Shown piece after piece: positions 22,594 to 61,832 of a DNA stretch of 64,000 bases. Both the position numbers and the translations under genes were made by a program. Position 1 is the stretch's first letter. Every line of letters starts with the position of its first letter. The notes under the pieces were generated by a model that saw only the letters and a list, made by a program, of their open reading frames with translations, had not been told where the DNA came from and made no database searches. The stretch spans positions 12,772,001 to 12,836,000 of the forward strand of contig NC_092672.1 in NCBI RefSeq assembly GCF_964355755.1, read 5' to 3'. This DNA comes from Antedon mediterranea. Its lineage: Eukaryota; Animalia; Echinodermata.

Positions 22594-22607
22594 TAATAAT
22601 AATAATA

Positions 22608-22638
<31 letters not shown>

Positions 22639-22890
22639 TTAGGTATTTGTATAGCGCCAGAATCAACTAAACCGAAGTAAAAATCAAAGGCGCTTATATT
22701 ATTTGATGTTAAAAAGATGCGTTTTAAGTTCTTTTTTAAAAATAGCAATAGAAGTTGAATGAGTAAAATGACGAGGGAGAGAATTCCAAAGAGAAGCAAC
22801 AAAGAACATAAAAGACCTTTGTCCATAAGATTTGGTGTTAATTCTGGGAACAAGTAGTAGGTTTTGATCAGCCGAACGAAGACAAGCAAT
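22594..22890 (-). mobile_element. L2-group LINE 3' end with (ATT)n tail
   Basis: The minus strand encodes YGQRSFMFFVASLWNSLPRHF...FKKELKTHLF (typical L2 ORF2 C-terminus), followed by GGCGCTATACAAAT and an (ATT)n tail. Confidence 0.85.
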
Positions 22891-23413
22891 GTAATTGATG
22901 TTATGTTTTCTTAGTACTATTATTATTGTAGGTCTACTGTACTTCCTTATCGGTATAACAATAGGCCTATACTCATCAGAACTTGTTTCATTTTTCTTTT
23001 AATTAAGCTGCGCCTTTTTCTGCGAATTACTAGTATTTATAAAACAAAATTAATCAGTAAATATTATTGAACTTTTAAAGCTGCCTTATATAAAGCTGTA
23101 AAACAAATAATATTTGGAGCATAAATTTGTTTCATTTTGTTCTTTTACAATTACCACACTTCCGATTTACCGGTACTAGAAAGATTTGTTTATTGGAGAA
23201 AAGATCGGTAACAATGAGAGGCCTGTTATTGTACTTTGTATAACTTCCTTATATTATTCATATTGGAGCAATAATACACTGTGCTATTTAAAGATAGAAA
23301 ACAAGCACTACCTGTTTCTGTATCACTGTTTGTTATTCACGATTGCATTATTTGTGCTATTTAAAACTTAAAGAGAAAACAAGCACCGCCAGTTTGAAGT
23401 ATCACTGTTTGTT

Positions 23414-23432
23414 CAGGGAGTTGAACTCCCTG
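23414..23432. mobile_element. 19-bp inverted-repeat scar CAGGGAGTTGAACTCCCTG with 7-bp TSD GTTTGTT
   Basis: TSD at 23407-23413 and 23433-23439. The adjacent paralogous repeat (23321-23346) shows the empty site with a single GTTTGTT. Confidence 0.85.
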
Positions 23433-24777
23433 GTTTGTTATTCACGATTGCATTATTTTTCTCAAGGTGTGTAAAGCAGAACAATGAATGCTTGCATTTA
23501 TCAAACTTCCGTTTTGCTTGTAAGCCTACCAGATCAATTTATTTGTTACGATAAAATATCGTTAACAATGTTCTTGTACTTTTTATAACTTTATGTTTAT
23601 GAGTATTGTTACTAGCAAGAATACATTGTGGTTTATATAAGTTTAAGATAGAAAAACCAGCACTACAAATTGTTGATATTGCAGCTGTATAGCAAGAATC
23701 AATCACAACTGGATACTAGTTTTAATGTACAAGATAAATGTATTTAAAAAAACTGTATTAAATATAATTTTACTTGCTTGTAACTAGGCCTAAGATAGCC
23801 CTGCATCTATAAATACTTTGTTTAAACAGTAGGCCTAGGCTGTATATGGTCATTGAGGCAGTGTCATTTTAATTATTTTAGGGTTTTGGATAAAATTATT
23901 TTTTCAAATTAAAATAGGTCTTTTTTTAACTTTAATAAATAATGATTATGTACTAGGCCATTAATTCATGCACCTGATGAAGTGAGATTACACACATAGC
24001 ATATAATTTGGCACATTTTATACCATTTAAAACACTGAATTAATTGAGCTATGGATTTTTGTATGAATTCATTTTACATACTGTATGTCTTTTCCAGTAT
24101 GTAACATAAATAAGTAGTAGCGCCTAGCTTATTATTTGAATACCACAGTATCTATCAATTTCATTTGTTTAAAATGTAGCGTATGGAATTATGCACCTAG
24201 GCCTACCTGGTGAAATATATAATAATATATTATTTTATAAATACTAAGCATCTTTTTAATAACAATTAATAATAGGCCTATCAGGCTATGTTGTTAAAGG
24301 GTGTCTTTGTGGGTATTCCAAGCCTCTCAAAAGATGACCGAAGTAAACACCCAACTTTTATTTTATATTTGGAAAGAGTATACTAAGCTACTAGATACAG
24401 TAGGCACATAGATACAGTTCATCACATACAGTATCAATCAATCAAATTCAGTACTCACAACATTATGAACTTCATGTCATATAGACCTAGGTAGGCCTAT
24501 TCTATGAGAATTAACAACTCCCTGGGTAGGCTAGTCCTACTACTGTAGGCCCTAGCCTATTCACTATAATAGTATAGGCCTAGGCCTACTAGTATTAATC
24601 TAATGTCCGATTGTGTGTCACCATAATTATTAAAAAAATATACAAAGATTCACAATCATAGTTGGATAATAATTTAACCATATTATAGAGAAAATAAATA
24701 ACATAAAATGCCTAGGCCTAGGCTAGGCCTAGTTAGAACGGTTAAACCTGATCGTCCGTGGAGCTGATGGTCTAGGC

Positions 24778-26821
24778 CGGGTAGTAACAAAGTGCGAGGC
24801 AGCGAGGCACGCGAGGCAGGGAAGGCATGCGAGGCAAGTCAGAAATTTATGCGAGGCATCGTTTTACCATCATCAAAAAATGCGAGGCATCATTTTATTA
24901 TTTCTCAAAATTGCAAGGCAGGAAATCACCGAAATTGAAGTAGCCTAGGCCTAGGCCCGCTAGGCTAGTTTCCTTTTGCACCTGCCTTGTATTTTAACCA
25001 ACTTTATCCTGAATACCACAGCTTAGAATTAGTAGGCCTACTTTAATGAAGAAAAATCACATAAAAGTAACAATAAATCCATTAAATTGCTGATTTTACA
25101 GACGTTGTTTTTCTCGCATTTCGCACACTCAATGTTCAATATTTTGGTTTCTATGGAACGCCAAAAGAGCAAAATTAATTAGAGGGCTAAAAACTCTGTG
25201 GAATCCATTTATATTTAACGCATTATTTGGTGAAAATCAAGTACAATTTCAATAGATTTTGTCACTGTCAGTAAGGAAAAATGTTACTGTTCACCGGTGT
25301 ACTGTTGATAATGTACACGGTTTCGGTAACCTTTTAAAGAATAAAATAGAAAAATTCATCATAATATCCTTAGTAGGATGTCCTAGGTCTAGACTAGGTA
25401 GTGATGTTGATTTAGGATCGATTATTATTCTTTGAAAACAGAACAGTATCAGCAGTAACATATTACAGCATTTTTATTGACAAATTAACAAATATATTGA
25501 AATAAAACGTGTTTTTCACCAATAAATGCATGAGAAATTGACGCATTCCACTGAGTTTTAGTCCTCTATTATTGTTGCTCTTTTGGCGCTCCATAGAAAC
25601 AAAAATATTGAACATTGAATAAGTGAAATTCGCGAACAGTGTGCGAGAAACACGCCTGTAAAATCATTAATTTAAGGATTTATTTGTTACTTTTTATGTG
25701 ATTCTTTCATTAAAGTACGCATGAGGTATACTTCTAAGGTGTGGTATTCACACGATAAAGTTAGTTATCAAATTTGGAGTAAAAATACAAGCGAAGGAAA
25801 CTAGCGCCAGGTTTATTAGTACGTACATGGACAACAATAAATAAAAATCGTTCGTAATATACCTAGCTTACTAAAACAGGAATAGTGTATCATTATTAAA
25901 TATTACACCAATTATTATTATATCAAAATTGATTACATTATTTTCTACATAGGCCTCTTATCTAGGTTAGGGCTAAGCATATTAGAAAGTTTAATTTTAG
26001 GCCTAGTATTACAATTGTCGGACGTAAGTCTTTTTTCACACGCGCTCCAGAATTCTGTCGCAATTTTTTTCTTTGCGGCATGTTATTGGATCGCCATATC
26101 AGTTACCTTTTATTCACCGCCAGTTATTGAACTTGTCCTGGAAATCGCTGTTCACCTTATTTGCGAGAGAGGTACACGTGTTGTTCCTAGAGAATGGAAT
26201 GTCAAAAATGTCTTTGGCACGCCGCTCAGAGAGAAGTCTGTGCGTTGCTGCTAAAACCACGTGCTATAGGAGGGGAATGCACCACACTCCTCTGAGCTGA
26301 GGGCTGAATCATTCCGCTACCTGCTAAATAGTACAAATCTCTCGGGTCTACCGGATCTAGGCGCAGGGGTGTGACAAAATATTAGTTTCACTCTGCTATG
26401 TTCGAGAGACATGTGAGTGAACACGCTCGAAATGCCAACAAACATTGCAGTCATTTGATGAGTGTGTCGCTATAACAATTATTGTTTATCGAAAGTTGAA
26501 GACTGTCGTTCAGATTTTTGAACCGTAGGTTGGGCACTTTTGTAAAAGTAAAATTTGACACGATATGACTTGAATGAAAAAACAATCGTTACATAAAAAT
26601 AAACAACATGATGAGTGTATACACGAATCTATTTAGATACGCTTGTATCGATTGATTATTAGGCCTATAATATAGCATAATAGCACGTTAAGATATGCCT
26701 CGCACCTTTTTGAAATTGTAAACTATATGCCACGCATGCCTCGCACTTTTGGAAATGATAAAATGATGCCTCGCACAAAGATTTGGCATGCCTCGCTTGC
26801 CTCGCACTTTGTCAACACTCG
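24778..26821. mobile_element. Non-autonomous DNA transposon (hAT- or P-like) with GCGAGGCA subterminal arrays, nested in the foldback element
   Basis: Imperfect TIR CGGGTAGTAACAAAGTGCGAGGCA / TGCCTCGCACTTTGTCAACACTCG; 7-8 bp TSD (G)TCTAGGC(C) on both sides. Confidence 0.8.
24965..25804. mobile_element. Long-TIR palindromic MITE nested in 24778-26821
   Basis: ~300-bp diverged inverted arms (CTAGTTTCCTT...AAGGAAACTAG; CTATGGAACGCCAAAAGAGCAA / TTGCTCTTTTGGCGCTCCATAG). Same family as ~43065-43670. Confidence 0.75.
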
Positions 26822-27522
26822 TCTAGGCCTAGGGCCTAGGGCCTAGGCCTAGGCCCGATCGAAATTCGTCCGTGAACGAGGCGAGCGAGTGCAATCACTT
26901 CCCTACTACCGTACGTATCGGCCTAGGCCTAGGTAGGCTAGGCATCTAGACCCTACTATCTAGCCTTAGCCTAGCTAGGCTAAACTGCCGGGAGGCGATG
27001 ATTTACAACACAGTTAATAATAAATTTGGTAAACTTTCTACACACAGTACACACCAAAATACAAACGTCACACACGCAGCACCCCTGAAAAATGTATTCA
27101 GGAGTGCAATTTGTATTTTTTGTATATGTTTTTAAGCAAAATTCTATACATAACCCTAATTGTTAATGTTCAATGTGATATTTATTGAAGTGCTTTGAAT
27201 ACGTTGATGAAATTTGGAGGTATGAAACTTTGTTTGGAGTAGAATGAGCTTCCAGCATCAAATGTTAAAAATATGTTTATATTACTCATTAATTAATAAT
27301 AATTATTAATAAATTAATAGAAAACTAGAGAGGGCGCTTTTCGACAAGGAAATGAATGTTTTTTTATGTGTGTTATTTTTCCGCTCGAATTCGTTCAATG
27401 TACTTTAATATACACTATTCCATACTATTTTATTGGGAAGCCTATTCGCTTCTTTTCTTCAGAAAACATCTAATTTAGGTCTTAAAGTCACAAAAATACA
27501 CCTCACATCACCAACCTCAAAC

Positions 27523-29133
27523 CAGTGGTGGCGCCAGGATCTTCCCGACGCGGGGGCTACATTCCCCGACGAGGGGGCTATGCGAGCGAAGCGAGCATCA
27601 CTAGGCTGGGGGCCAGGGGGCCGCCAAGGGCCCCGGTGGGGGTCCAGGGAAAAAATCCCCCGTAAGCAACGCGTTCTAGCGTCATTTGAGGTCATTTTAA
27701 CCAGATTTAGGGTAGCCATTTTTTCCATTTTTTATAATGTATAAATAAAATACTGCGTGCAAAAAAACGATGCGCGATGACTGTTTCAATCCATATTTTT
27801 CAATTTAAAAAATAAATGTTCAAAGAAAATTTAGAAAAATAGAGGTGGAGGTCCTGGAAATTGGACTTATTATACTTCAAAACATGAAACAAAATATATA
27901 AGTCCCTATCATGGTTGTGACTGAGCTAAGAAATGTTTGAAAAATAGAGGTGTTAGGTCCCGGAAAATGCACTTCTTGTACTTCGAAATATGACCAGCTT
28001 TATTGTTGGGGCTGAGCTAAGAAAATGTTTAAAACTAGAGCTGCAGGTCTTCAAAAAATTGCATTTTATACTTTGGAAACATCAGGCATAGAGGCTTAAA
28101 AAACGCAAGTAGACCTTTTTCAGTCGGGAAAATAAGTTTATTCCTCCCAAGTGTATGCGTGCGTACCATCTGGACTTCCGAGTGGTGAGAAATTCATGAC
28201 ATACAGGACATTGAAAATGTAATAACTTAGCAATAATAAGATGTTGGCTAAGCGAAAATGGCACGTTTTTTTTTTTGATGAAAAATTTATTTTAGGTGCC
28301 CCACGGTACAGAAGGTTACTTATAAATTAAAAAAATTGGTGAACATACGAACAATTAACTTAATTCGTTTTTGCTGTAGTGTAGCGTACGTCGACACAGT
28401 ACACGACGTAACCGTCGGTAAACTTCGCCTGGAAAATAACTACAGTACACATTTTTGGTCCCCTGATGGAACATGATATCACGCGTCTCGACCCAACGTT
28501 GAACGATTCGTACAAAGGGATACCGCCAGACAAGTGCGTACCTAACTATTGTTTAGTAGTAAGTTAGATCGCTGGCAATAATGAATGCATATAAAGTGCA
28601 TAATATCACTCTGACGTACTCTCACGGTCAATGAAACGTCGCGGTTTTCTAGGCGCTGAAGCTAGCTACGAAGTGAACGCGAACGCTTTTTACTGTATAT
28701 TATGTTCCCCGACAAAAAGTACCCGTGTTCCCTTCGGTAACCGTCGGTAAACTTCGCCTGGAAAATAACTACATTACACATTTTGGTCCCTGGATGGAAC
28801 TTGATATCACGCGTCTCGACCCAACGTTGAACGATTCGTACAAAGGGATACCGCCAGACAAGTGCGTACCTAGCTAATGTTTAGTAGTAAGTTAGATCGC
28901 TGGCAATAATAAATGCATAAAAGTAAGTGCATAATAGCCCTCTGACGTACTCTCACGGTTAATGGAACGTCGTGGTTTTCTAGGCGCTGAAGCCTTATGA
29001 AGTGAACGCGAACGTTTTTTACTGTATATTATATTCCCCGACAAAAAGTACCCGTGTTCCCCGACGGGGGGGGCTAGGCTCCCCGACGAGGGGGGCTAGA
29101 GCTCCCGTAGCCCCCCCGCTGGCGCCACCCCTG
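27523..29133. mobile_element. hAT-type non-autonomous element, 1611 bp, 8-bp TSD CCTCAAAC
   Basis: TIR CAGTGGTGGCGCCAG / CTGGCGCCACCCCTG; TSD at 27515-27522 and 29134-29141; subterminal CCCCGACG.GGGGGCTA motifs. Confidence 0.9.
28408..29060 (+). repeat. Two tandem ~329-bp units inside the hAT element
   Basis: GTAACCGTCGGTAAACTTCGCCTGG starts at 28408 and again at 28737, and the similarity continues through both units. Confidence 0.88.
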
Positions 29134-32100
29134 CCTCAAACACATCAGATTCTACCAACACACACTTCATCTCCTGAACTAACATAGTACAGTATAAGTC
29201 AAATTAAATGTTTTAAATTTTTTTATTGAAATCAATCTTCTGCAAAAAATATTATAATAGTAACAATAACAGAAAGGTTGATAGGTATTTTAATATTTTT
29301 TAAACTTAAAAAGGTAAAAAAAAAACTGAATAAATGTTTATAGGCCTACATACATTATAATTGAAATAAAATAACTACTATTTTAGTAATGCATACACAA
29401 GTACAGAATATCAGAAATCAATGAATTATGTGTCTAAATATGGCATTATTAGGCTAATTTGCTTTGAGAAAAACATTAATGCCATTGGCCTATACAAAAA
29501 ATCAATGCAATTAGACAAAATAGTTACATAAACAATTAATACTAATATTGGTAGGCATAAAATAATAGTGTATATAAACTTTCCTTAAATATAAACAGTA
29601 TAGGGCCTTACCAATTTATTTAATACATAATATATGAACTATATTACACAGTTATCAACCTAGGGGTTAAATTATTAGGAAAACATTGGTTTATTTTTTA
29701 TATGTGTACAGAAATTCGTTCTTCTAGCCTCAGATCATTCCTGAAGTTAGACATAAATCACATAAATTAGTATTAAGTAATGGATATTAGATGAAGTACA
29801 GTACAAATACATGTTTCAGGAGGATTTAGTTTAAATGTTACCCCAATGAAATTTATTCAATTACCAGGTTGAATTAGTCTGGTGGAAACACTACTATATG
29901 TACTCATGTAGAACACAGTCAGTTCTACCAAGGTTAGAGGTGGGTGCCAACATTTGAGATAAGTGGAAACATGACCTTTTCAATAGTAAATTCATTACCA
30001 GCATTATAAATAAAATGTTAAAAAGATGAGAATGCAAGTAAATATTAGATTCATAGTCCTCATTACGCACAATGGTTTTCTACTATCACATTATTAAAAT
30101 ATAAAACAATCATATAGCCTTTAATGAATTTACATGGAGGTCTATCCAAATAAATTTAAATAAAAGGGTCGTAATATGTCTTTGTCTCCATTTCGTGGAA
30201 AATGAACAAAAAATATTCAAAATATCCTGCCAGTTTGCGTTCAGTACAACCTGCTTAGTTTTTAATACGAGTACTGCTTTCTATACACATAACTTTGATT
30301 TCTGCAAAAAAAAAAAATCTCTGTAATAATGTACTTTTTAATTACTGTAATAATCTAGGCATAGATTATGTTGACCAGGCCAGTGAGAGGACGATCGACT
30401 GTACAGTACTATACCGTAAGTCCTCTAGGTGGATACAACTTATTTCTTGTCTACAAAGTGTACAGTAGTATGCTAATAGTACTATTATTAGATTAGGTAG
30501 TTGGAGTAGTTTGGAGAGATACATCTATTTATAAGAGAGTACTTTATATTTATAGATATAATACCAATATAGGTACCATGTATTGGGATGCAATTCAACA
30601 GTTATGAATAAAAAAAACTCTGTATGCTTTTTTCTAGCTGTGAAATATAAAATTGTTAAATGAAAAAGAAAATTTAGGGTGATCATCCCAGTATTTACAG
30701 TCTAAATTTGATCTTTATGCAACAATAGGCATAAACGAATTTTTAATTAACAGGTATAAAAGCAAATTAAAAGCCCTACGTACTCTGTATGTTGGAGGAA
30801 ATAAGCATAAGTGCAAATAAATCCTTGACCACAGGATGTAATTCACTATTTGGAATCAGTAGTACACGACTGTGTTGGACCATAATGTGGTCCAGGTTGA
30901 CGGGCCAGGAATGATGGTAGTGCCCAGTATACAGTGTAGTTTAGCCTCAAGGAAATGATGTAGCTGGATTAGCTTGGAGAAATACACTAGAGATTTCATG
31001 AGATTTGGTGTGTGATGATTCAGTTTGATAATTAGCTGTGAAAAAAAATTGTTGAATTATGAAGAAAATATTGTAAAATATAACAAGGAAGTTATACTAT
31101 AGTATAATTAAGGGGTAACCGTAAAATATTATATTATAATAATAAATGCAATGGGAATTACTATTACTACTAATATTATGTATACAATACAATATTACAG
31201 TTAAATTCATAGGTCGATATTATTTTATTATTATAAGGAAATCTGTTTTAGAATGAGAAAAAACCGTCCCAACCTAGATTTGAACCCAGCTATCAATAAA
31301 GCTATAAAGCTATTGGTACGAGTTGACCAATTATTTGGGTACGAGTTAGCCAAGTTTGGTACGAGTTGACATGGGTACGTTACGGGTTGACCAGCACCCT
31401 AGAATACGGATAAAGATCAACCCGTACCCCCATGCCGACTCGTTCCCATCCCATGGTAGAATACTACTTACATGTTAGTTTAGCCTAGCTGGGCTAACCT
31501 ACCTCACCTCTCACATGCCCTCCTGAAAAAACGCGACCGAAATTACTGGAACCCTACTTCCTAGCCTACTAGACCTAGATAGTAGTGATCCGTAGTACCA
31601 TGGAACTATAATAAATGGTAGACGTACTAGTACTGTGTAGTATATGTTAACATGTCTGGCTCTACGAGGCCTTTTTATGCTCATAGGATGGCTTTTTTGG
31701 GCGTCCCAATGTAGGTCTATGCTATGCCTATAGCTAGGACAGATTTCCCATTCCTGCAGGCCTGTAGCCTATGCTCTAGTAGGGCGGCCGGGTGTACTCT
31801 GGTCGATTCACCCCTGGTCGACTCGTACCCATGCCAACTCGTACTTAACTTCCTACCCTAAACTCGTATCCAACCAAATAATTGGTTGATTTCCCGCTAG
31901 ACTAGTAGGCCTAGCCTAGCTACAATATTCATTATGCCCTGCTAAAAAGGTAGATGAGCTACTAGACTAATTACGTAATTCGTATAATAATAACAATAAT
32001 TTACTAGAAGGCCTAAAAGCGGCGGAAAACACCTATCCATTCTTGCATGGCAGTACGAAAACCTGCCTATGGTTGTACATCATTGTAAATTGTCAACACA

Positions 32101-33319
32101 CACTGTGCTACAGACAGTGTACCGTGTGTTAAAAGTACAGCATTTATAGCAGACAGCAACGTGTATAACTTGCTATAGTTTTAAGATAGCACCTGTGGAC
32201 AGTAGCAGAATAATCGGGTGCACAAACAATAATTACGTGAGTGTTAATCATATTTGAAAACTCTATCGGAAAAGGTACAAAAATAAGGGTTAATAATAAA
32301 ATAATAATAATGTCTGTTATTCTCAATCTCAGATCAAATTAAAAAAGTATAAATAGATAAATTAAAGAACTACAACTAATATAAGTGTATACAGTGGACA
32401 TAGCAATAGTGACAAACACTGTGAATAGGACTAAGCAGTAAGCAAGAGCTCCAGACGCAAAACCCCTTTAAATAATAAAACAAATTAAATATAAATAAAT
32501 GAATAATACCATTTTTAATTATTCTAATAACAATAAGGTTAAATTTAACTCATTGTACGGAAAAATAACATATATTTCGTAATTAGCTGAAATTAATTTG
32601 AAAACCTATTTCAATTACAAATGCATCAATTTGGAATTTCATGGATATTGAAGTAAAGCGATTTAAATTTTATTCATAAATTATATTAGTATTTGGGTTA
32701 ACATTCCAAATTCTTGTGTTTTCCCGTTATTCGTGTGTGGTGTGTAATAAAAGTAAACTTTTGGCCAAACTGTCAGCTGGACTCGAGCACTGTGTTAATT
32801 AGTTTTTAGATACAATATTAATTATACTTGTGCGGACCCCATTGCTCATATTTTCAAAGCAGATTGACTGTGGTACTTCTCAATAATGAATTCAATAAAG
32901 CGTATTATTTTTAATATCTATTCACGATGTAAACATAATTTGTATCAAAATATACATGGAAGTGCATTACAGTTATCTGTAAATCTGTCTGCAAGAGCAA
33001 ATAAAGAACGATGATGGTGGTAACGAACAAGACTAATACCATATTAAAGTGCGGATTCCTCAATTGGTATTCATAGAATTGGTTGCAATCACTCCCCAAA
33101 CACAGTCTATAATCTTCTTGTTGTTAGCTGATGGCTATATAAGATTATTCTTTTATTCTCGAGTGGGAGAATATAACACTTAAAACCTGATTAGAAATGA
33201 GCATAACGACAATAAATTTCATGCGTTGTAATGCATTTTTTTAATTACACGCGCATGCTCGGTTTATTACTAAGCTCAGAATTGAAATTTTTGTTTTATT
33301 TTTTGTAATGAAGTTTTTA

Positions 33320-46280: not shown

Positions 46281-47721
46281 GGCCATGCCGTTGCAAAGCT
46301 GTCCGTCCGTCGGTTATCGTTGCTTCTGAGTGCAAAAAAAGAACAGAACTGCGACGAATGCCATCACCTCGTAAGCACGATCGTCGGAGCAGAAGGTGAA
46401 AAGGAAGATACAAAATTTAGACTGAAAAAATGTTTGCTTCATGTTGTTTGACATAATATAACATAAATAAAATGTGTAATATGTTATACTGTATTTGAGT
46501 GGAACATTAAAATTCAATCCTGTCTATAGGAGGTCAAGTAAACTCCTATTTTTAGTTTGTATTACTACAAGTGAAATAACCCAAAAATGATGCTGTTAAT
46601 GTTGTATTTTGCAAAAAAAAGAATTATTCAAAATCAGAAAAATAAGCAATTTAAAAACTGATTTTGAGTTAGCAAAAAAAATTATAAATTTCCTTATATT
46701 GATAAGGTAAATAAATACAACATTTTGTTTTATCAAGATTTAGTTTTGATATGTAAAATTAATATTTATATCATTTATTTATTACAGAAATAAATTTTTC
46801 CCTATATCAAAAAAAAAAAAAACCCAAAAAACACACAGAAGAGTTTAAGTGAACTAAGTTCAGGTGAGGCATTATGGAATGGAAAGAGTTACCGGTAAGT
46901 CCTGTTTACACTTGGACATTAACAAATGAATTTATATATTATAGTTTTAGGATGAAAACTTTTCTAATTTCTTTTATTGTCTGTAGACAAAATGTATTTT
47001 TATTATCTATATACTATATCATCATTTGTTTTCAAGGTGAATTTTCTTGTTTACCGATAAATAAGGTTATGTAAATAAATTGCATAGTACAGTATGTATA
47101 GTTTATTCAGAATAAAAATCATAAAGATTGCAATTTTTTTAACTCAAATGCTTGTCTTGTTTTGCATAAACAGACAAAAATGTAAAAAGAATCCATCTTT
47201 GAATAATTCCGACATTTGGTTTTCAGCAACATAAATAATGTCTTTATTTTTATTTTGAGAATCTTTTTCATAGCGGTAGGCTTATGAACACTGTACGAGC
47301 GAAAACCAGCCTGTAGAGTGCGCCGTTTATAATTGCTCTCCTTCGTGAGGAAAATCCTATAGACTGCAAACCATCGGTATGGTATGTGGCAATTCACCAG
47401 GTTCAATATTAAACCGTTCATTGGCAAAAGTTTGATATTTAAATTTATTGAGAAGACAAGGTTTACACTAACATTATTACGCTTATAACTTGTATATTGT
47501 ATATAACAATTTGACCATTTATTTCAGGGGCTTATGTCATTTTGTAGGCTTTTGATGTTAATTTCGCTAAACAAGAAAAACTTTGGTGCCATTTTTTTCG
47601 ACCATGGCAAGTGGCCGCCACTTGATTTTCAAGATGCCGGACTAACTTTAACAAAAATGATCGTGAGTGGTATCATTGGAAAGAGAATTTTATGAGTGTA
47701 ATGGAAATAAATGATCAGTGT

Positions 47722-48314
47722 TGTAAAGATTTATGTCGTCCACTGAGGGCGCATATCATAATATGCTTCGAGTATCGGACGATGTTGTGCGCTCACTCGT
47801 TTGCAGCTAATGTCATATAAACATGCCTGAAGCGTTCCAATAACCATATATTATTATGAATATTATAGTGTTTTTGGTTATTACTTGTTTTTATATAAAC
47901 CAGGAATCCTGGTAATAGGCTGTAATTGTTGATAAAAGATTTTAAAAGTTATATTTTAGTCAGTTTAGGTGACGTCTTCTTTAGGCCGACGCACGTTGTT
48001 TTCATTGTTTTGTATTCTGCGAGAGCCTCTCTCGCTCGGACAGTTTGGGTCACGTGACCCGTATGCTAATATTACCGGTACTATTGCTAATCATCCGTTT
48101 CTATTTATTTTGTATTTGTAGTGATAAATGAACACACACACATTTCCAGATAGCCACATTGACACCTTGCCACTTTGCAAACTCATCACCTATATGTAGA
48201 GGATTACCTATTAAAAGTTACCTTGAGTTTTACATGCTGACCACTTGTTTCATTCCGTCTGTCATTCTACCTACCTACTACCGAACCAGATATAACAGTA
48301 CATACATTTCTACA
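47722..48314 (+). repeat. 5' LTR of BEL/Pao family A (5' edge approximate)
   Basis: TGTAAAGA...TTTCTACA termini, TATATAAA near 47892, ATTAAA near 48210; directly abuts the PBS. Confidence 0.7.
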
Positions 48315-48332
48315 TGGTCCCTCGAGCCGGAT
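48315..48332 (+). promoter_or_regulatory. Primer-binding site (tRNA-Tyr type) TGGTCCCTCGAGCCGGAT
   Basis: Immediately after ...TACA and 4 nt before the gag ATG at 48337; matches the TGGTCCTTCGAGCCGGA PBS common in BEL/Pao elements. Confidence 0.85.
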
Positions 48333-48336
48333 AAAA

Positions 48337-50090
48337 ATGGCGGAGGAATTGAAACAACTGAAAATCAACAGACGTAATGCTAAAAGAAATTTAACCAGAC
48401 AAGGCAACGCACCGAGGAGATGCTTGCATTGGAGAACCCAGATTTGGAAGAGATTAAAAGGAAGGCAGATTTATTAGAGGACCTCTTCGCTGTAGTAGAA
48501 CTAAAGCATAACGAATTAGTCGAACATGTGGAGGGCAAGGAAGACTACAACACAGAAGAGAAATGGATGCAGGATTGCCAGGACCAGTTCTTGATTGAAA
48601 AGGAACAAGAAACAGTATTTTAGTAGATGACAGTAATGTAAATAATAGTAATGTTATTAATGATGAAATTTCAAGTAATCAAAATGATATCCATGATGAT
48701 AATGTTAGTGAGGTTAATTTAAGTGATCCCGCTATTGATGTTGATAATGTGAACGATAATAATGTTATTAACCCTAATTTATCCACAGCCATTAGTAGTT
48801 CATTGGACACAAACGCCTTCAATTGGGAAGGCTTGTTACGGGCAATTGCTCTACCCCGCAGCCAACCGAAAAAATTCAGAGGAGACCCGCTACGGTACCA
48901 TGCATTCATTACAGCATACAAGAGCACCGTTTCTCAAGTCCCAGATGATGGTGTCAAGTTACAACATCTACTCTCTTTATGTGAGGGTGCTGCATATTCT
49001 TCGATACAGTATTGTGTCCTTAAACCAGCCGAAGAAGGCTACATAGCAGCCATTAAAAAGCTAAAAGAGAAGTTTGGGGACCCCAACATAATAACCAAGG
49101 CCTGGACTGATAAAATACTGAAGCGAGAAATAGTTACCCTCGATACACTCGGAGATTTTGCAGATGACCTAGGAAACTGCTAGCTAGAAGCTTTGGGGAA
49201 ACTCTTGGAACTGGATACCATGGAGGGATTATCCAAAGTTGTGCAGATTTTACCGACATTCTTCCGAAACAAGTGAAAAGATGTCAATTTCAAGTTGAAA
49301 GAGAACCATACCACCGCTACACTCAAGCATCTACTTGAATTCGTTCAGAAGGCTAGGGACAAAGAGGAAGATCCAGTATTTGGAAGGGTGCTAACCGCTA
49401 AGAAACCAGAAAAGGATAAAACTAACCAAAGGGATCACCAAAGAAATCACCGACCACCAACAACTATGACCCTTACAGATACGAAAGACAGCAAGAAACT
49501 ACCTCGGATGTTCTGTCCTTACTGTAATGGAAACGAGCATTTCCTTGGGGGCTGCAAAAGCTTTAGAGAACTAAGCCAATCCCAGATGAAGGATTGGATC
49601 ACTAATAACAATCGCTGTAAACATTGCGCTAGAAAACATGTTACCACCGAATGTACTCTTCGGAAGGGTTGTAAGATGTGCTCTGAACTGCATCTTACAG
49701 TTTTGCACGACACCCTGTCACCGGTATCTCAACAGTCCACTCCTTCCAATCCAGAAGCGGCAACCAACCAACTCTACAGTCTGTGTCAACAGTACAAGCC
49801 CAGAGACGTAATCCTGAAAATCGTCCCGGTAACATTATACAGTCCCACCAGCCAAGTTGATACCTACGCTGTTTTAGATGATGGGTCGATGGGAACCATG
49901 CTGCTCACTGATGGAATGAATAAACTACACATACAGGGCCATAAAGACAGCATTGTTCTGAAAACTATGGAACACGGAACAACCACTGTTCCTGGACGGA
50001 GTGTAAACGTACAAATATCGGCAAGAGGCCAGACTCACAACAGATATAACCTTGACGATGCGTTTTCTTCGACCTTGTTAACACTGGGGA
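48337..50090 (+). pseudogene. BEL/Pao family A gag plus aspartic protease, with frameshifts and stops
   Basis: MAEELKQLK start; PKKFRGDPLRYHAF (DUF1759-type); three Cys/His knuckles (CPYC..H..C, CKHC..H..C, CKMC..H..LH); protease YAVLDDGS. Confidence 0.9.
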
Positions 50091-53086
50091 CCTACTACAC
50101 AAGATTCAAGAGCACCAGTTACAGAATTGTTTACTTCCTTTTCCCAATTGGAAGGTATAAGTACAGAGAAATCACAAGAGCCAACACCAGTCTGGCCTCA
50201 AAAGAAGAATAATGGTAAGGTTTCTGATAAACGTGCAGAGCCACTTCAGCAGGAACCAAAAGAGAAGATAAAACATTATACACCAATAGTTGAACACCAG
50301 AGTGACCCAATCAAGCAAGAGGCACCTGTGACAGTTACAAATGAATGTGACCTCAGTGCAACGTTCCGACAGCTGGTTGATTCAATACGATTACCCCCAA
50401 TCAGAGTATATCTGTTCAAGGGTGATCCACTCAAGTTTCCAACGTGGCTGGCAGTATTTAATTCATTGGTAGAAGCAAAGACATGTTCCAATTATGAAAG
50501 ACACAGCTTACTGGCACAACACCTAGCTGGGGAACCGAAGGCTCTTGTTGCAAATTATTTGCTTCTACAAACAGAAGAAGCATATGTTCAAGCCAAGAAT
50601 GAACTTAAAAAGAAGATACGGACACCCATCAGTGGTAGCTAAAGCGCTGATAGCCAAACTAAATGAATGGCCGAAGATATCAGCGAAGGATAATACGGGT
50701 CTGAGAAAATTTTCAGATTTTATTTGCGAAGTGGCTGCTGCAAAAATGACTATTTCGGACTTAGGAGTTCTTGATTACCCTCAAGAAAACATGACGTTAG
50801 TTAGTAAGCTACCATACTATCTGGAAAACAAGTGGCGCAGTATAGTCAGTACATCAATGGATACTTCAACCTTCCCAAGTTTGGAAAGGTTTTCAGAGTT
50901 TCTGAAGGCCAAAGCGAAGGAAGCAAATATCCCTATGTTCCAGACAGCCAACCCTCACAAGGAGCAGTTCACAAGTTCATCGAAGAGAGAATGTGCCACT
51001 TTGCCTACAAAGGTCTGTAACCTATGCAAGAATCCTCATGAGATAGCGAAGTGTAAGAAGTTCATAGAGTCTAACTACGAAAGGAAGTTAGAAATAATTA
51101 AAGATCAACGGTTGTGTTTTGGCTGTTTACGTCCGGGTCATAGATCCAAAGAATGTAGGCAACGCATGCAATGTGGAACCTGCAAAGGAAAACACCCAGC
51201 CATCCTCCATCAGGAAAGACCTGCTCCGGTGAAAGAACAAAATAAAGTTGAGAAGGAGCAAGATAAAACTCCGCCAGAGCAAACACAAGAAAAGAAGCCC
51301 GCTACAATTCCCTCTGCTGGATGTAGTGACAATGATGGAGTCTGCACTATGGCAATTATTCCTGTCATTTTAAAGTCGCCAAAGAACGGCCGGGCTGTAA
51401 CAACTTATGTGTTCCTTGATCCAGGGTCCAGTGTATCATTCTGCACTGACCGTTTGCGAAATGAACTGGGACTTGGAGGACGAAAGACGCAAATTGTACT
51501 CGACACCATGGGAACGAATCAGGTTTTAAAGACTCACATAATCTCAAATATTGTTATTAGTAATTTGAACGGCGACAAAGAGTGTAGACTACCAAATATT
51601 TATTCAAAGGATACGTTGCCTGTCACTAAGGAGCATATTCCAACACAAGATGATGTGAACAGGTGGGATCATCTACGGGGACGAGTGGTTGTTCCAGAAG
51701 TTGATGGAGAAATTGGTTTGATGCTGGAGGTTAAAACGCTAGACCTACGGAAGGATAAACTGCCATCGGGAAGTGCACTTGGTATACAATAGTCTCCAGA
51801 ACTTGACACACTTAGATTTACTATATTACCAGCAGATAGAAGTCATACCAGACGAGGGGTGCTATCAATTGTTAGCTCTGTATTTGACCCACTTGGGTTA
51901 GTGGCTCCTTTTGTTTTAGCGGCAAAAATTCTACTACAAGATATCTGTCGGAAGGGTCTTGAATGGGACGAGCCCATTGACGATGTGTCATTGCAACGAT
52001 GGAAACGGTGGTTGCAAGACCTGGCGAGACTGGATGAGTGGATCTGAACTACCAACAGATGTCATTAGTCGCCAATTTCATGTGTTTGCAGACGATGGGT
52101 ATGGTATGGCATCTTATATCAGACAGGAGTCAAGTGATGGTCATGTACAAATGTCCCTGGTCATGGGTAGAAGCAGAGTTGCACCCTTGAAATACACTTC
52201 AATTCCAAGATTTTCTATTGGACAGATAGTCAAACCGTTTTGAAATATATACATAAAACCTCTCGAAGATTCAAAGCCTTTGTAGCAAACCGGGTCTCTA
52301 TCATTTTGAACATATCTAAGGCATCAGAATGGAGGTATGTTAGAACTTGTAATAACCCAGCTGATGAAGCATCAAGAGGTCAACGGATTGAAGAATTCCT
52401 AAGTAACACAAGATGGCGTAACGGACCAGAATTTCTCAGAGATAAATGTGAGCAGTGGATAGACTTACAAGCCAAGTCCTTACCTCTTATCGCCGAGGAT
52501 GACCCAGAAATCAAAGGGGTGTCAAATGTATTAGTTCCAGCTTGTACTTCATGTTAGATGATCTGTACTGTGTTCATCTTATGGAAAAATTAAAAGAATT
52601 GAGGCATGGTTACTGGTTGCTGTTGAGAAACTATGCAAAAGGGTCACCAGTAAGCGACTAGGCAATGTTAGGTTTCAAAAGCGGAGTGCACACGAACAGA
52701 GAGTTCATTTTAAACAGGAGTTAGAGGTACTTAAGAATGATAATGACGAATCTATTGGACGGGTGATGAGAAATAGCCCTCTCAAGAAACTTGATCCGTT
52801 GTTGTTAAATGGAATGATTACAGTGGGAGGAAGACTGAACAAGGCGTCTCTTCCCGACAACATAAAGCATCCAGAATTCTCTTATTGCAAGATTATTCAT
52901 AGTGGAAATACACAAAGAGGTTGGACACCTTGGTAGAAGTGCTATTTTATCACAACTTTATTGGATCATTGGAGCAAGTTCCTTGATCAGAAGTGTTATA
53001 AGCAGATGTGTAGTTTGTCAGAAGCACCGAGCTAGAGCTAGTGAACAGAAAATGGCATCACTGCCACCAGATAGAATTGTGAGCGA

Positions 53087-54352
53087 TCATCCACCGTTCC
53101 ACAATACGGGTATTGATCTATTTGGTCCATTTGAAATCAAATTAGGTCGTAGTCTTGTGAAGAGATATGGTGTTGGAAGACGCTTTCGTTTTGTCAGTTG
53201 TTGGCGCATCTCATCCCGCAAAGTATCGGCCATCGAAAGCAAACTGTCTTGAAACGTAGAAACCATATCGGTTTCTCGTTTTTGCAAATTTTCTATTACT
53301 TGTTGATATTTGATTTCTCTTTCTTCCGATTTGGTGATATGATTTTGGAATTCTATCAACATAGTATTGAATTGTGTTTGTAAAGTAGTCAGTTTTGTTT
53401 CTGTTTCATGCAAATTTTGGCGTGTCTGCTCCAATTGGCTTACGAGTTGTTGAATGCCAATGTTAGATGAGGGTAGATTATTGACATCACTAATGAAACC
53501 TCTCGTCGATGGATACTTGTCCATTAGAGAATCTTCTAAGATTCTTTTTCGCTTGTACTCACATTTTTCTTTTAATACCGTCATTTCATCTGATATCTGA
53601 AGAATGTTTATTATGGCAGTCCAATCACTGCTTGCATGTGATTCCATCGCTCGTCCAACAAATTTAGCAAATAGTGTTTTGTTGATTGAATTGGTTTTGG
53701 CAATATTCGCAATGGCGGTGGCAACACCATTCTTTTTCTCCGATGTGCACGGTGTGGAAAAGGCACCGTGCAAAGTTATGGGATACTTCATGTCCGCACC
53801 GCAGTGATAGGTTCTCTTTTCTTTTTTGTGCAATAAGAATATACGGTTGTTGTTGGTCACCGTAATTTGCAACTCTTCCAGTTTGCTGTTGTCCAACTCG
53901 TTTTCCAGAGTCAACTCTAGTCGCATGCGTCGTTTTACAGTTATCGGCATGATGGCGGCCGTATAGACAACTCCATTTGGAGTTCTAAGTCGAACGCCAT
54001 TCGTCGGCGACGACGACGACGCAACATCATCATCGCATTGTGGACTGTAGAGACAGCCGAGTGCCATATAGAAACAAATACGTTTCACGTCGCCTTTGAT
54101 TATGTCAAAAATCGGCACGGGCATCGTCGATACATCGGCGCCGACAAAGTCAGCAACACAGTTTTTATTACGTGAAGAAACGTTCATAAACACATTGTGT
54201 TCTGATGCTATATCATCTTCTTGTTGGTACTCCATGAAAACTGGTTCGACCGGGTCTTGCAATTCCAACATTTCCGTCTTTAATATGTCGTCGTCTGTTG
54301 AATTGAACGCTAATAGGTTTTCTAAAAACATGTCCATATCGCAATGATCCAT
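53087..54352 (-). CDS. Orphan protein (421 aa from the ATG at 54352): acidic N-terminus, globular middle, C-terminal coiled coil, KRKR motifs; last ~28 aa read into antisense BEL sequence
   Basis: Uninterrupted frame of >1.2 kb; heptad pattern in IQQLVSQLEQTRQNLHETETKLTTLQTQF; promoter motifs just upstream. No family recognised. Confidence 0.7.
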   Translation of the reverse strand: MDHCDMDMFLENLLAFNSTDDDILKTEMLELQDPVEPVFMEYQQEDDIASEHNVFMNVSSRNKNCVADFVGADVSTMPVPIFDIIKGDVKRICFYMALGCLYSPQCDDDVASSSSPTNGVRLRTPNGVVYTAAIMPITVKRRMRLELTLENELDNSKLEELQITVTNNNRIFLLHKKEKRTYHCGADMKYPITLHGAFSTPCTSEKKNGVATAIANIAKTNSINKTLFAKFVGRAMESHASSDWTAIINILQISDEMTVLKEKCEYKRKRILEDSLMDKYPSTRGFISDVNNLPSSNIGIQQLVSQLEQTRQNLHETETKLTTLQTQFNTMLIEFQNHITKSEEREIKYQQVIENLQKRETDMVSTFQDSLLSMADTLRDEMRQQLTKRKRLPTPYLFTRLRPNLISNGPNRSIPVLWNGG

Positions 54353-54359
54353 GATGACT

Positions 54360-54411
54360 ACTGACGAATGCACGGTGAGCGAGTTAACGTATATAGACCC
54401 AAACAGCCAAT
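54360..54411 (-). promoter_or_regulatory. Compact Pol II promoter: CCAAT box (54407-54411), TATATA (54395-54390), TCAGT initiator (54364-54360)
   Basis: TATA-to-Inr spacing is ~30 bp and the ATG follows within 10 nt. Confidence 0.6.
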
Positions 54412-54553
54412 CAACGTCCAGCTTGAATGAGCGGTGTTGACTACCATTTGAAGATGATGCGTTGTTTTTGTTTTTTTTGTTCACGCTGCTGTTTTTCGTA
54501 CGTAGAGTGTATTTGTGTACGTGTACATTGGAGAGAAAGAGAATGCTTTTGTC

Positions 54554-54673
54554 ATGCAATCTGTTTCCCGTATAGTGGCGAGAAGACCTAACAATTACCT
54601 GATTTCAGCTATACTCGTGACTTTATTATGCTGTATTCCATTCGGTATTATAGGAATCGTGTACAGTGTAGAT
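54554..54673 (+). CDS. Exon 1 of a CD225/dispanin (IFITM/PRRT/TMEM233-like) gene; remainder lost at the insert boundary
   Basis: MQSVSRIVARRPNNYLISAILVTLLCCIPFGIIGIVYSVD matches the CD225 pattern P..YL..AI..T..CC.P.GI.A..YS. A GTAAGT donor at 54674 sits at the family's conserved intron position; candidate acceptor TTTTAG at 54740. Confidence 0.85.
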
Positions 54674-55775
54674 GTAAGTAATCTATTTCCTCTACAACCT
54701 CATCCCATCACCACTTTTTTTATTTTTTTATCTATTTTAGTTTCTATGTTATCTTCACATGTTTATCTACCCGTGCCATTCACCTAGAAATGGCATATTC
54801 ATTAACTACAAGCTCGTTCATCAATACTTTGAGAAGATTTATTGCCCGAAGAGACCAAATCAAGAAACTTAGATCGGATAATGGTACAAATTTTGTTGGA
54901 GCCGACAAAGAGTTAAAGAAGGAGATTTCAGAATGGAACACTCATATGTACTTGCAGCAAAGCGATATTGAATGGGAATTCAACCCTCCAGGAGCGTCTC
55001 ATTTTGGTGGTGGCGTCTGGGAACGCATGATACGAACTGTGCGCCAGGTTTACGAAAGGAGCACTTAGAGAACAGAACCTGAAAATGGATGATGAAGGTC
55101 TCCAGACATTATTTTGCGAAGTGGAAATGATTGTAAACAATAGGCCAATAACTACCTTGTCAACCAATCCAAATGATTTTCGACCATTGACACCAGCCAT
55201 GTTGTTGACACAATTGCCATTACCACCTGGTGTATTTGACAAACGTGATATTTATGCTCGTCGTTATTGGCTTCAAGTCCAATATTTGAGTAATCTTTTT
55301 TGGCAGAGATGGAGGAAGGAATATCTGCCTACTATGCAAGAGCGTCAGAAGTGGTTTAATCCTAAACGCAACTTGGAAATGGGAGATATTGTGCTTGTAG
55401 TGGATAACAGTTTACCTAGAAACAGTTGGCTGCGTGGGCGGATAGTGGAGTCTAAAAAGGATAAAAGTGGACTTATTAGATCATGCACAGTAAAAACTCA
55501 ATTTTCCACCTTGAATCGTCCTATTGCAAAATTGTGTCTACTTGTAAAGGCAACTGAAGAATCAGGGGCAGAATAAACCCATGTGCCTATGACCGGAGGG
55601 GCAGTCTACACCCGAGGATGGACACATTAAATAATAAGCAACTATTATGCAGATCAAAGAGGACTTTATAATCGAAATTTAACAATGTTATTCATAGACA
55701 AGGTTTAAACTGTTTATATCTGTATAATCATTGTTTTAATCATTAGAGCTAAATAATTGTAATGTTTATTAAATT

Positions 55776-55785
55776 AAGGGGCCGG
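55776..55785 (+). promoter_or_regulatory. Polypurine tract of BEL family B (AAGGGGCCGG)
   Basis: ~200 bp after the pol stop, directly before the putative 3' LTR. Confidence 0.65.
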
Positions 55786-56494
55786 TATAGCGTTCCCATT
55801 GAACTGAGCTAATGAGGGCGCTAGGCTGGTTGTCTTGGAGAAGTATCATGGCGGCCTTCATGTATGCAGCGTGGTTGTACCTACTAGTACTAGCCCTTTA
55901 GTTTCAAGTTTGTTAAAGATATTACATATTTAGAAATTGTATATTCGTAAAGGTTTTCTATTGAGCCACAAAACTTCGGTGAGCTTTGGAGTTATAATTA
56001 TATTATCTTGTTATTGAATGTTAATGTTATTACTTGAATGTTGTAAGCCTAGCTAATAAATAGTCCTAAATTAATACAGCCTATGACGGCGTGTTACTGA
56101 TGTTTACATTACTGTGTTTTGCTAGTGCAGAGATTAGGGCCTAGTTGAGACGGGTCCATTTGATTATTGTATGTTGTTTGAATAATAATACTGTATAAGG
56201 AAATTGCTATACTTAGTGTATATTGTATTGATAAAGGACTTAGAATTGTTAATTAGTTGATGTTGCTAAAGCACGGGTACTGCCCAAATTTTCATTGATT
56301 GATGTTTAATTATTGTTTTCTTATTTTATTATATTTAGTGAATCCCTCTCGATACGAAGTGACAGCGATATTGTATGCATGTTAAGAGCAAGATAATCAG
56401 GATTAAAGTTATATTTTGTTTCTCTCAACCAAGTTTGTCATGTTTGTTTGTATCATACTTGCGATTATGGAAAGCCAAACCCGCCAAAAATACA
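55786..56494 (+). repeat. Putative 3' LTR of BEL family B (3' edge approximate)
   Basis: Follows the PPT; starts TATAGC (for TGTAGC); ATTAAA near 56402; ends AAAAATACA. Not alignable by eye to the 5' LTR. Confidence 0.55.
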
Positions 56495-56898
56495 TAATAC
56501 ATACCATCCACCAATAATTAATTCGTACAAAATTCAAACCATCCAATATTATCTCATGCAGTTCAATGAAAACTTAAACCATTCACCTTGTATCTACACC
56601 ATCCAATACAATGTGTGACCATCTACCACTACCCCAAACGACAATACGCCGAACAAACTACCCATAACACAAACCATCTAAAGAATGTTGAGCCCAGGCA
56701 GCAATAATTGAATTAATCTAACGTTAATACAAGTATATATTAGCCAACTCATTTATCAACATTTCATGTAGTTCATGAACATTTCAAACAAAGCATCTTA
56801 ATTTTAGTTCATCGAATTATAATTCTAATTCATTGCCTGTTTTATACACCGTTCGTCTGTTCAACAGTTGAAACAACTGTTTTGCACACGATACGCCC

Positions 56899-57349: not shown

Positions 57350-57685
57350 ATAAATTAAAAATGTAGATTTATTCCTTTGACATCAACTTGTCGGAATTTA
57401 CATAAAACCAATATTATTTGTTCTCAAGATAAAACATTAAAGTGTCCACAAAACTAAAAGTTTATATTAAAATTGAGTCTTCAGTTGAAACAATTCCGAC
57501 TTGAAAGGTTCCACAGTAGAGTAAATGTTATCAACGAAATGTTCCGACCAATGGTGTAATAATTGCAATAATGATTCGTAAATTTCAAAAGTAGTGTTTT
57601 CTCATCTAAGAAAAGAGAAAATATATACATATACTATATAACTATAAAACAATTTAAATCAAATATCATTTGGTACATAATTACA
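57350..57685 (+). repeat. 336-bp direct duplicate of 60070-60405
   Basis: The two copies appear identical by eye; offset 2720 bp. Confidence 0.9.
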
Positions 57686-59309: not shown

Positions 59310-61832
59310 TATGATGCATAAATTAACTGTTGTTGAGACGCTTCCATTTGTTTACGGGGTAGGCCTATTTATTTGAAATAATGACATTCATTATGTTTTA
59401 TAGACTTTAGTGGAGACGTAATTAATAAATATCCGAATAAACATATTTTACGAATATTTATCATGGATTAAATAAAAACATGTGTATTGTTATTAAATCT
59501 TAATTATTTTGTTATTCATCATGCATTAAATAACCCAACGCTGTTATGGGGACTATTCAACTGCGTAGTTCGTCATTTTTCACACATTGATGCTGATTGA
59601 ATTGATTCAGCTCAGGAAGACCAAAAAAGGTACGTACCGTACGTATACTGATGATAGGTAGATAAATAAATATAATAATGTTTAATAGTGTTTTCCTGTT
59701 TTATTATTATTATTATTATTTTAAATTCTGTGTTTTATCGATTTTGTAGGTGAAATTGATGATGGTTTAAGTTATTGTTATACTTTTCTGTATAGGCTAG
59801 GCCTAGCCTAGGCCTAGGCCCTAATAATTATTAATATTGGAATTATTATCATTATTTTATAAAAAGCTACAATTAGTGCCATGAGTGGTGACCAGGATTG
59901 GAACCTGGATTTTGTAGCTGAAATTACTAATTATAGGAATTATCCAGCTATAATATAATATTATTACACATCATAGGCCTAGCCTAGGCCTACATTTGTA
60001 ACCCGAGTTTCTAGCAAGAAACTAAAATTTCCAAGAAGTATTAAATAATCAAATCAAGGAAAACGCCTTATAAATTAAAAATGTAGATTTATTCCTTTGA
60101 CATCAACTTGTCGGAATTTACATAAAACCAATATTATTTGTTCTCAAGATAAAACATTAAAGTGTCCACAAAACTAAAAGTTTATATTAAAATTGAGTCT
60201 TCAGTTGAAACAATTCCGACTTGAAAGGTTCCACAGTAGAGTAAATGTTATCAACGAAATGTTCCGACCAATGGTGTAATAATTGCAATAATGATTCGTA
60301 AATTTCAAAAGTAGTGTTTTCTCATCTAAGAAAAGAGAAAATATATACATATACTATATAACTATAAAACAATTTAAATCAAATATCATTTGGTACATAA
60401 TTACAATAGCACAATGTTTGCAAAATAACCTAGGCTATGATAGACAATTAAACAAAATAAAATATAATCCGTCAATACCATCAGGTTCGATTAACACTGA
60501 TTGGTATATGATTATTCACACTACTCATTAAAACAATAGTTACATTATATAGTTAGAGGTACTTCGTTTGGTAAGTATGCTAATACTTGATACCAATATA
60601 ACTACATTGCAACGCAATGGATAATAGCAATAGCTATTCAAACGTGTGTCTATCAACATATTAACCTGACTATTATAAACTCAGGATGGTTAATGCATCC
60701 ATTCAATAAACTAAATTATAAACTAAAAGGTAATTAAATGTATAAAAATAAATGTCGCATATAAAGCGGAAATCAAAAAATAAGTGTATAATACAATAGT
60801 ATCAATTCTACAATCACACTCCAATTGTCTCTAGGTCAATCAATACCAAGAGTGTACTGCCATCTAGTAAATGACCCACATTTACCAGAATCGTCCTGAT
60901 ACACTCATAAAATTAAAAGTATTAGCAAAAGCAAGTTAATCACTTCAAGACCCTTTAACTTAAAACGGGAGAGAACAATGTGTGATTGCAGAACCTTACT
61001 TTACAGTAACATAAATTACCAAGCGCAATTGCAAATGGTATCACAAAAGTTATAAAATATAATCAAAGTTAAGTATCACATAACTAATCTAAAGCATTGA
61101 GCCAATGCAAACATAATGCATAAACCTAATCTTCATAAGCTTAAATCTCAAATTAAGTTATATTAACACATTTGTTAAACATAAAATAATATAATTGATA
61201 GTTCTTACCTAAGAAAAGAGCCAAAATATGAAAAAGTGACTTCCTTTAAAGTTGTTAAAAATGTATAGATGTTTCTTGTGAGCAGGCACAAGTGGAAGTG
61301 ATGTATAATCATCAGAAATGAGGTATAATCACCTTAGTTGCCTAGCAACTTGGCAAAACACATTCCTTACTTCCCAAACAGTGGTCACTTTGACCCACTT
61401 GTGGTAACCTTTGTTGCAATTAAGCTGCATTCTTTTCTACTGACCTATAAACTATATTTATATACATTGTAAAAACAGATACATTCAAATGAATAAAATC
61501 AAACAGAAAGATATAAGAAAGATATAAATGGTAAAATATATTCATAAAAATCATAGGGTTACACTTATATTAAATTATATATAAACCTCCGATTGTGCGT
61601 AGACCGATATTTTAATCAATGGTTGTATTTATTAATAATAAATAGTACAGAAGCCTACCACTGAACAATTATTTTTTATTTTGCCAAATAGCTCTAAACC
61701 ATATAGGCCTAGGCTCTAGGAATAATATTGATTTTCTAGTATATAAACTTAAAATGTGATAAATTAACGTGAAATTGTGAATAAGTGTAAATACAAGTTG
61801 TATGGACTCATTCGTTTCAGGTATCATCCAGT

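Follow-up and report, generated by a model that had tools for sequence, protein, structure and literature searches.

Gene fragments lodged in mobile elements, and host-like genes carried by viruses, are known from several animal systems. Single-copy captures inside animal transposons with terminal inverted repeats (TIRs), the Pack-TIRs, are attributed mostly to transposition-independent gap filling in the accessible text of the study describing them; there, gap-filling donors lay on the same chromosome in 59.8%, and microhomology (median 2 bp) was present at at least one breakpoint in 67.6% of captures (PMC8277862). The LTR-mediated retrocopies of Drosophila are, in the available portion of their description, of mRNA origin, and part of the retroelement ORF has been replaced in all of them (PMC5131818). 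Endogenous nimaviruses, i.e. large DNA viruses integrated in crustacean genomes, carry intron-bearing host-like genes, some of which the authors surmise to have been annotated as host genes; the term "CD225" has no occurrence in the accessible part of that paper (PMC10871703).

Dispanins, which contain the CD225 domain, share a splice site that is conserved within the loop between their two helices and are numerous in echinoderms, with nine in S. purpuratus, according to the sections available (PMC3282796). The genome of the feather star Anneissia is given as 553 Mb with 26,838 genes in the accessible part of its report (PMC7351957). Here, we analyse an insert that brings together part of a dispanin gene, an orphan gene and a BEL/Pao LTR element in the crinoid Antedon mediterranea, and compare it with these systems.

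Results

The window, i.e. the whole 64-kb stretch of DNA analysed, contains no N bases and holds an insert in the integrase of a BEL/Pao element (Table 1). The left border reads GGTGTT/GGAAGA at 53174/53175 and the right border TTTCTA/TGTT/ATCTTC at 54746/54751. In the integrase frame, KRYGV ends the left half, IFTC opens the right half, and the two halves abut. YGVIFTC is presumably a BEL integrase motif, and residue 6 of the right half falls at position 33 of the Pfam rve profile; based on this motif and this entry position, no integrase residues were apparently lost to the insert. A sequence-only reading of the window had claimed that no integrase sequence was lost; the abutting halves, the motif and the rve entry fit this claim. 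No intact BEL integrase relative for a comparison of contiguity was present among 243 candidates, further searches for one were also blank, and the left half taken by itself had no match in Pfam.

Neither TIRs, tandem repeats nor an Rfam match was detected in the insert, its sequence lacks an LTR and poly-A, and the 64-kb window contains no second copy of it. A Pfam scan revealed no transposase in the insert and, with TIRs also absent, it does not classify as a DNA transposon. Insertion by a retroviral integrase or a transposase was considered and rejected because the insert has neither paired TG...CA ends nor TIRs. The sequence-only reading had described a segment flanked by TGTT that splits the integrase between KRYGV and IFTC, is free of TIRs, LTRs and poly-A, and holds two divergent genes that begin about 200 bp apart and are both cut at the insert edges. 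All of this was borne out, with the ATGs at 54352 (minus) and 54554 (plus), the 3' end of the minus-strand gene missing and the second dispanin exon absent.

Table 1. Positions of the insert, its genes and the surrounding BEL/Pao sequences in the window
Feature	Position	Strand	Remarks
BEL family A element	47720..50212	+	putative 5' LTR, gag, protease; continuous with family B
BEL/Pao family B, 5' part	50202..53174	+	gag (DUF1759, weak), protease, RNase H region, integrase H2C2; frame broken at several points
TGTT left junction repeat	53171..53174	+	duplication or microhomology
Insert	53175..54746	.	1,572 bp; probably a templated copy of another locus
ORF1	53175..54352	-	intronless, 392 codons to insert edge, 3' end missing
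Intergenic spacer	54353..54553	.	201 nt between the two ATGs
Weaker acceptor-like AG	54504..54505	+	in frame with dispanin ATG
Dispanin (CD225) exon	54554..54673	+	40 codons; equals residues 1-40 of P0003
GT...AG intron-like stretch	54674..54740	+	67 nt, at the conserved splice position of the family
TGTT right junction repeat	54747..54750	+	same 4 nt as left side
BEL/Pao family B, 3' part	54751..55576	+	rve core of the integrase, DUF5641; frame broken once
Polypurine tract and putative 3' LTR	55776..56501	+	end approximate; unlike putative 5' LTR

By domain content, the flanks of the insert are assigned to a BEL/Pao LTR element: DUF5641 (1e-28) and Integrase_H2C2 (3e-7) were recognised by Pfam, while rve (1e-5) and DUF1759 (9e-4) were below the cut-offs. 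The stretch 47720-56501 is a chimeric BEL, in which the LTR, gag and protease of one family precede the gag, protease and integrase of another. The two gags are 26-29% identical, LTR-to-LTR matches do not extend beyond about 29 nt, and a primer-binding-site-like motif is present at 48315 in family A. Most of the family B reverse transcriptase is presumably missing near 51725, judged by the domain order.

Counted from stop-free segments, the reading frame is broken about 8 times over 3.8 kb of BEL, compared with 0 breaks in the 1.3 kb of coding sequence in the insert (Poisson P 0.065; with pol considered by itself, 0.03). We conclude that the BEL, a chimera without matched LTRs or intact pol, was likely dead before the insertion. 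The frame breaks, together with the CpG content described below, suggest that the insert is young and sits in a dead element; this age argument is weak because gag B, too, has an uninterrupted frame, of 421 codons. The proposal that the insert had been archived in a retroelement is not borne out, given a BEL that was likely already dead, with unmatched LTRs and its broken frames. The integrase tail at 55085-55576 (plus strand) is identical to an annotated 163-aa protein, P0004, which could be transcribed from the promoter of the insert.

The minus-strand gene of the insert, ORF1, is a real-looking gene. None of 1,000 order-2 Markov simulations reached its length (maximum 243 codons), and its codon-position pattern resembles that of other ORFs in the window. 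Beyond the insert edge, its frame continues for 29 further codons in antisense BEL sequence to a stop at 53087-53089. The predicted protein has an acidic N-terminus and a long C-terminal helix, predicted to form a coiled coil and ending in KRKR. Single-sequence AlphaFold models of ORF1 were poor (mean pLDDT 45.9 and 33.0); residues 298-391 were modelled as a helix with pLDDT of about 70-94, the rest of the model being poor. A Foldseek viral search with the first of these poor models gave nothing at E <= 0.001 and is uninformative. Upstream of the ATG, the frame is open for 84 codons without Met (54353-54604, minus strand), through the spacer into the antisense of the dispanin exon, perhaps by chance.

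Relatives of ORF1 were not detected among 1,835,955,588 protein representatives in a full HMMER pass, among 2,325 candidates of 215-686 aa or among 3,819 candidates of 687-2,000 aa. Pfam, PHROGs and NCBIfam returned weak, non-significant matches alone, mostly on the coiled coil; the best match among PDB sequences had an E of 0.42; and in the ESM Atlas, the whole ORF1 reached a best score of 0.77, while residues 60-290 gave nothing usable. Similarly, there was no match in phage records, no pattern match in viral contigs and none among 27 candidates from prokaryote genomes. One metagenome match (1 of 29 candidates) was discarded as due to chance, since it spans 20 residues and lies opposite a bacterial-type ORF. 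As judged from sequence comparison, ORF1 lacks annotation even among the proteins of A. mediterranea. Thus, its description as an orphan ORF with a coiled coil held for the collections searched, the coiled coil being a prediction.

The plus-strand exon scored 40.5-41.9 bits against the CD225 profile (cut-off 27.1). A search with its 40 residues, restricted to proteins of 42-135 aa, gave one match among two candidates, P0003 (XP_071945699.1, transmembrane protein 233-like, A. mediterranea), which is complete with 89 aa and scored 81.2 bits. Residues 1-40 of P0003 are 100% identical to the window exon (40/40), and P0003 covers the full CD225 domain seamlessly (profile 2-68 of 68). The second exon of P0003 is absent from the window; accordingly, the second membrane helix is present in P0003 and missing from the window copy, which has the first helix only and a very short N-terminus. 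In the protein collection, P0003 is a single-member entry with one contig and a single NCBI accession, and its longest contig has the value 38,962,182, which is the same for the window-encoded P0004. Given the identity to a complete Antedon protein that is likely encoded on the same chromosome, the claim that the insert is foreign is not supported. Of the ordinary single-copy host source, which the sequence-only reading had set against itself, the single copy is seen, P0003 being single-copy in the protein collection.

The sole significant solved match of P0003, and hence its closest solved relative, was PRRT1 (E 1e-5). From this match and the name TMEM233-like, we tentatively assign the dispanin to the PRRT1/TMEM233-like proteins rather than to IFITM proper; the CD225 part of the label "CD225/IFITM-like" is therefore retained and the IFITM part probably does not apply. 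Dispanin homologs were absent among 20 candidates from viral contigs. Among 26 exact look-ups submitted, some of them repeats or with wrong starts, P0003 and P0004 alone were in the collection; absence by exact look-up means little because a host Ig-domain ORF (see below) was absent, too.

A GT donor directly follows residue 40, where the identity to P0003 ends. Compared with 4,545 background AGs, the AG at 54739-54740 ranks in the top 0.1% for its preceding pyrimidine run, and this strong acceptor-like AG suggests that the insert contains a near-complete 67-nt intron, more than a donor alone. The six bases after this AG do not encode the start of the second P0003 exon in frame, and the frame after 54740 gives 43 residues unrelated to that exon; therefore, the true acceptor is slightly further on or the junction was altered. 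Crinoid intron sizes for comparison with 67 nt were not found in the literature available. Because the intron is retained and the genes are divergent, a DNA rather than an mRNA origin of the insert, as previously proposed, is supported.

In the spacer, ATTGG (54411-54407), TATATA (54395-54390) and TCAGT (54364-54360) stand on the minus strand 59, 43 and 12 nt ahead of the ORF1 ATG. We take these putative motifs to stand in a promoter-like order, and the promoter that the insert was claimed to retain is a candidate. The AG at 54504-54505 has a pyrimidine fraction of 0.73 (top 3% of the 4,545 background AGs). If this AG is real, ORF1 may have been nested in an intron upstream in the dispanin gene, in which case the two would not have had a bidirectional promoter in common.

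GC content does not mark the insert because, at 0.40, it equals that of the BEL flanks (0.40-0.42). By contrast, the CpG observed/expected ratio is 1.26 in the insert versus 0.59-0.66 in the BEL flanks, and 1 of 34 host windows (mean 0.89, SD 0.19) reached the insert value. Likewise, insert and host differ by a dinucleotide distance of 0.161, a value that 1 of 68 host windows attained; BEL (0.157) and LINE (0.143) sequences are about as far from the host as the insert. In ORF1, 32% of NCN codons end in G versus 3-20% in five other ORFs of the window. Thus, of the reported contrast with an AT-rich host, the frequent CpG is confirmed but the GC content is that of the BEL flanks. The intronless ORF does not set the insert apart from the host, since the window holds another intronless ORF at 15578-16918 (plus strand), which encodes a 446-aa Ig-domain protein with a membrane-like segment and of which three starts were absent by exact look-up.

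Three further features were observed elsewhere in the window. A 10.7-kb element at 21520-32220 has terminal inverted repeats of about 1,065 bp (98% alike) that start with CACCCG, a 7-bp direct repeat CACAAAC at its flanks and no ORF of at least 130 aa inside; from these hallmarks, it is likely a young non-autonomous foldback-type DNA transposon. A perfect 434-bp tandem duplication is present at 8511-9380, beside a LINE reverse-transcriptase-like ORF at 7119-8384, and a perfect 336-bp duplication is present at 57350-57685 and 60070-60405, 2.7 kb apart. The two perfect local duplications reflect either recent local copying or assembly repeats.

Discussion

The insert is probably a truncated 1.57-kb segment that was copied by gap-filling repair from a resident locus into a likely-dead BEL. 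The donor is likely on the same chromosome, based on the equal longest-contig values of P0003 and P0004, and, judging from the complete P0003 with its identical exon 1, it likely still holds a complete dispanin gene. We favour a gap-filling copy because it agrees with an intron that was kept, with genes that diverge, with a repeat of 4 nt at the junctions and with a donor that is likely in cis. In this process, a break would have occurred in the likely-dead BEL/Pao element; a break end would then have invaded the donor, copied 1.57 kb by template switching and rejoined, and TGTT would represent either a duplication left by a staggered break or, at one end, microhomology. The window copy would likely yield no complete protein; should its promoter be active, the products would be a truncated ORF1 transcript that continues into BEL in antisense and a dispanin stub with a single helix.

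Several points speak against a copy. The gene model of P0003 could have taken up the window exon and joined it to a distant exon 2 beyond the window, and such joins are easy because the splice position is common to the dispanin family. A second copy of ORF1 is without support because ORF1 is in no protein collection searched, and gap filling has been described for TIR transposons, not for LTR elements. If P0003 was stitched together in this manner from the window exon and an unrelated downstream host exon, the insert could be DNA that entered BEL in a single capture event from a virus that was infecting but not integrated. The compact and orphan features and an ORF1 that is annotated nowhere are consistent with such a capture, and the equal longest-contig values of P0003 and P0004 would be expected if P0003 used the window exon; however, the annotation would have to join across more than 9 kb, bypassing a strong acceptor close by and spanning P0004, which is annotated separately on that strand, and P0003 is a seamless full CD225 domain of 81 bits. 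We regard this origin as unlikely. LTR-mediated retroposition, in which the reverse transcriptase switches templates within the particle of a replicating BEL and which the sequence-only reading implied by "archived in a retroelement", would account for partial genes with short junction similarity in an LTR element, and a BEL-flanked retrocopy is known in mosquito from the available part of the literature (PMC5131818); this is nonetheless quite improbable, given that no BEL sequence seems to have been replaced, that the intron is kept and the genes face opposite ways, and that the LTRs are unmatched although this mechanism needs both LTRs of one element.

Slightly less probable again is that the segment was moved and not copied. 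The sole exon 1 would then lie here and splicing would bridge a long intron to reach exon 2 at the old downstream site, leaving a working dispanin and a broken ORF1, as would suit the single accession of P0003 and a whole ORF1 that is found nowhere; three breaks would be needed, and splicing would face competition from the strong AG at 54739-54740. Least probable, to the point of being negligible, is an assembly chimera: both junctions are at one codon position of a continuous integrase, the 4-nt repeat has a probability of about 2% by chance (by a rough formula), and the assembly has no gap letters in the window.

The donor would be a compact locus with an orphan gene, and the chances of an ordinary host locus and of an integrated virus or giant mobile element are about even. 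That the insert was copied in the same manner from a large DNA virus or giant mobile element that is undescribed, resides integrated in the genome and has its own spliced dispanin is, as a special case of the repair-templated copy, a tentative proposal. It would explain why ORF1 looks real and yet has no relative among 1.84 billion representatives, why the ATGs are 201 nt apart versus about one gene per 20 kb in Anneissia, and why the intron appears to be only about 67 nt; the CpG ratio, the NCN codons ending in G and the dinucleotide distance point in the same direction, and the endogenous nimaviruses, in the accessible part of their description, provide a precedent (PMC10871703).

On the other hand, the insert contains no capsid, polymerase, ATPase, integrase or transposase, and viral hallmark genes were absent among the 13 ORFs of at least 130 aa in the window (as read; 7 proteins were scanned with Pfam). 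Viral collections gave no relative of ORF1 or of the dispanin; orphan viral genes would give the same blank. Moreover, P0003 has one member and one accession versus multi-copy nimaviruses, BEL and LINE sequences deviate about equally in dinucleotides, the splice site is an ordinary animal one in a group with many dispanins, and the insert shares its GC content with BEL and its window with an intronless host-type Ig gene. Thus, the proposal that the insert is a piece of an undescribed compact DNA virus or giant element stands as far as its compactness and orphan gene are concerned, but is met by neither a hallmark gene nor a viral homolog.

The dispanin family of membrane-fusion regulators includes antiviral IFITMs. 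The insert may have been freshly taken from a large DNA virus or giant mobile element of crinoids, so far undescribed and either integrated or infecting, with a minimal spliced dispanin that possibly blocks superinfection or tunes entry; we rate the chance of this as somewhat short of even, and that of a viral or mobile origin of any sort, one-off capture included, as the same or a little closer to even. Among the literature matches listed, as far as their text was accessible, there was neither a virus-encoded CD225 protein nor a DNA virus or giant element in Antedon. If the donor is an integrated virus or giant element, the insert points to a large crinoid DNA element with a spliced dispanin gene. 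If the insert is a repair-templated copy, it is one more gene fragment repaired into a dead transposon, which is a known kind of event but with an LTR carrier.

How does the locus compare with the described systems? With the dispanin/CD225 family it shares, on the PRRT1-TMEM233 side, the profile, the splice position and PRRT1 as the nearest solved protein; unlike the family as described in the accessible sections, the window copy has only the first helix, a very short N-terminus and an apparently very short intron (PMC3282796). The crustacean endogenous nimaviruses set a precedent, in that they are large DNA viruses integrated in marine invertebrates and have host-like genes that contain introns; no homology was found, however, and those viruses are, in the available text, multi-copy and equipped with core genes and recombinases (PMC10871703). 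LTR-mediated retrocopies similarly consist of partial genes in an LTR element without poly-A but, as portrayed in the accessible part of their description, they are mRNA-derived, replace part of an ORF and lie between the LTRs of one element (PMC5131818).

The closest likeness is to the single-copy Pack-TIRs, which, in the portion of the study available, are also DNA-level gene fragments in old transposons with short junction homology; as there, the donor is likely on the same chromosome and transposition is not needed (PMC8277862). The differences from the Pack-TIRs of that text are that the carrier is an LTR element (BEL/Pao), that there is apparently no loss of carrier sequence and that two divergent gene starts were taken up (PMC8277862). 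By analogy, the insert thus appears to work like a Pack-TIR but is none, its carrier being an LTR element.
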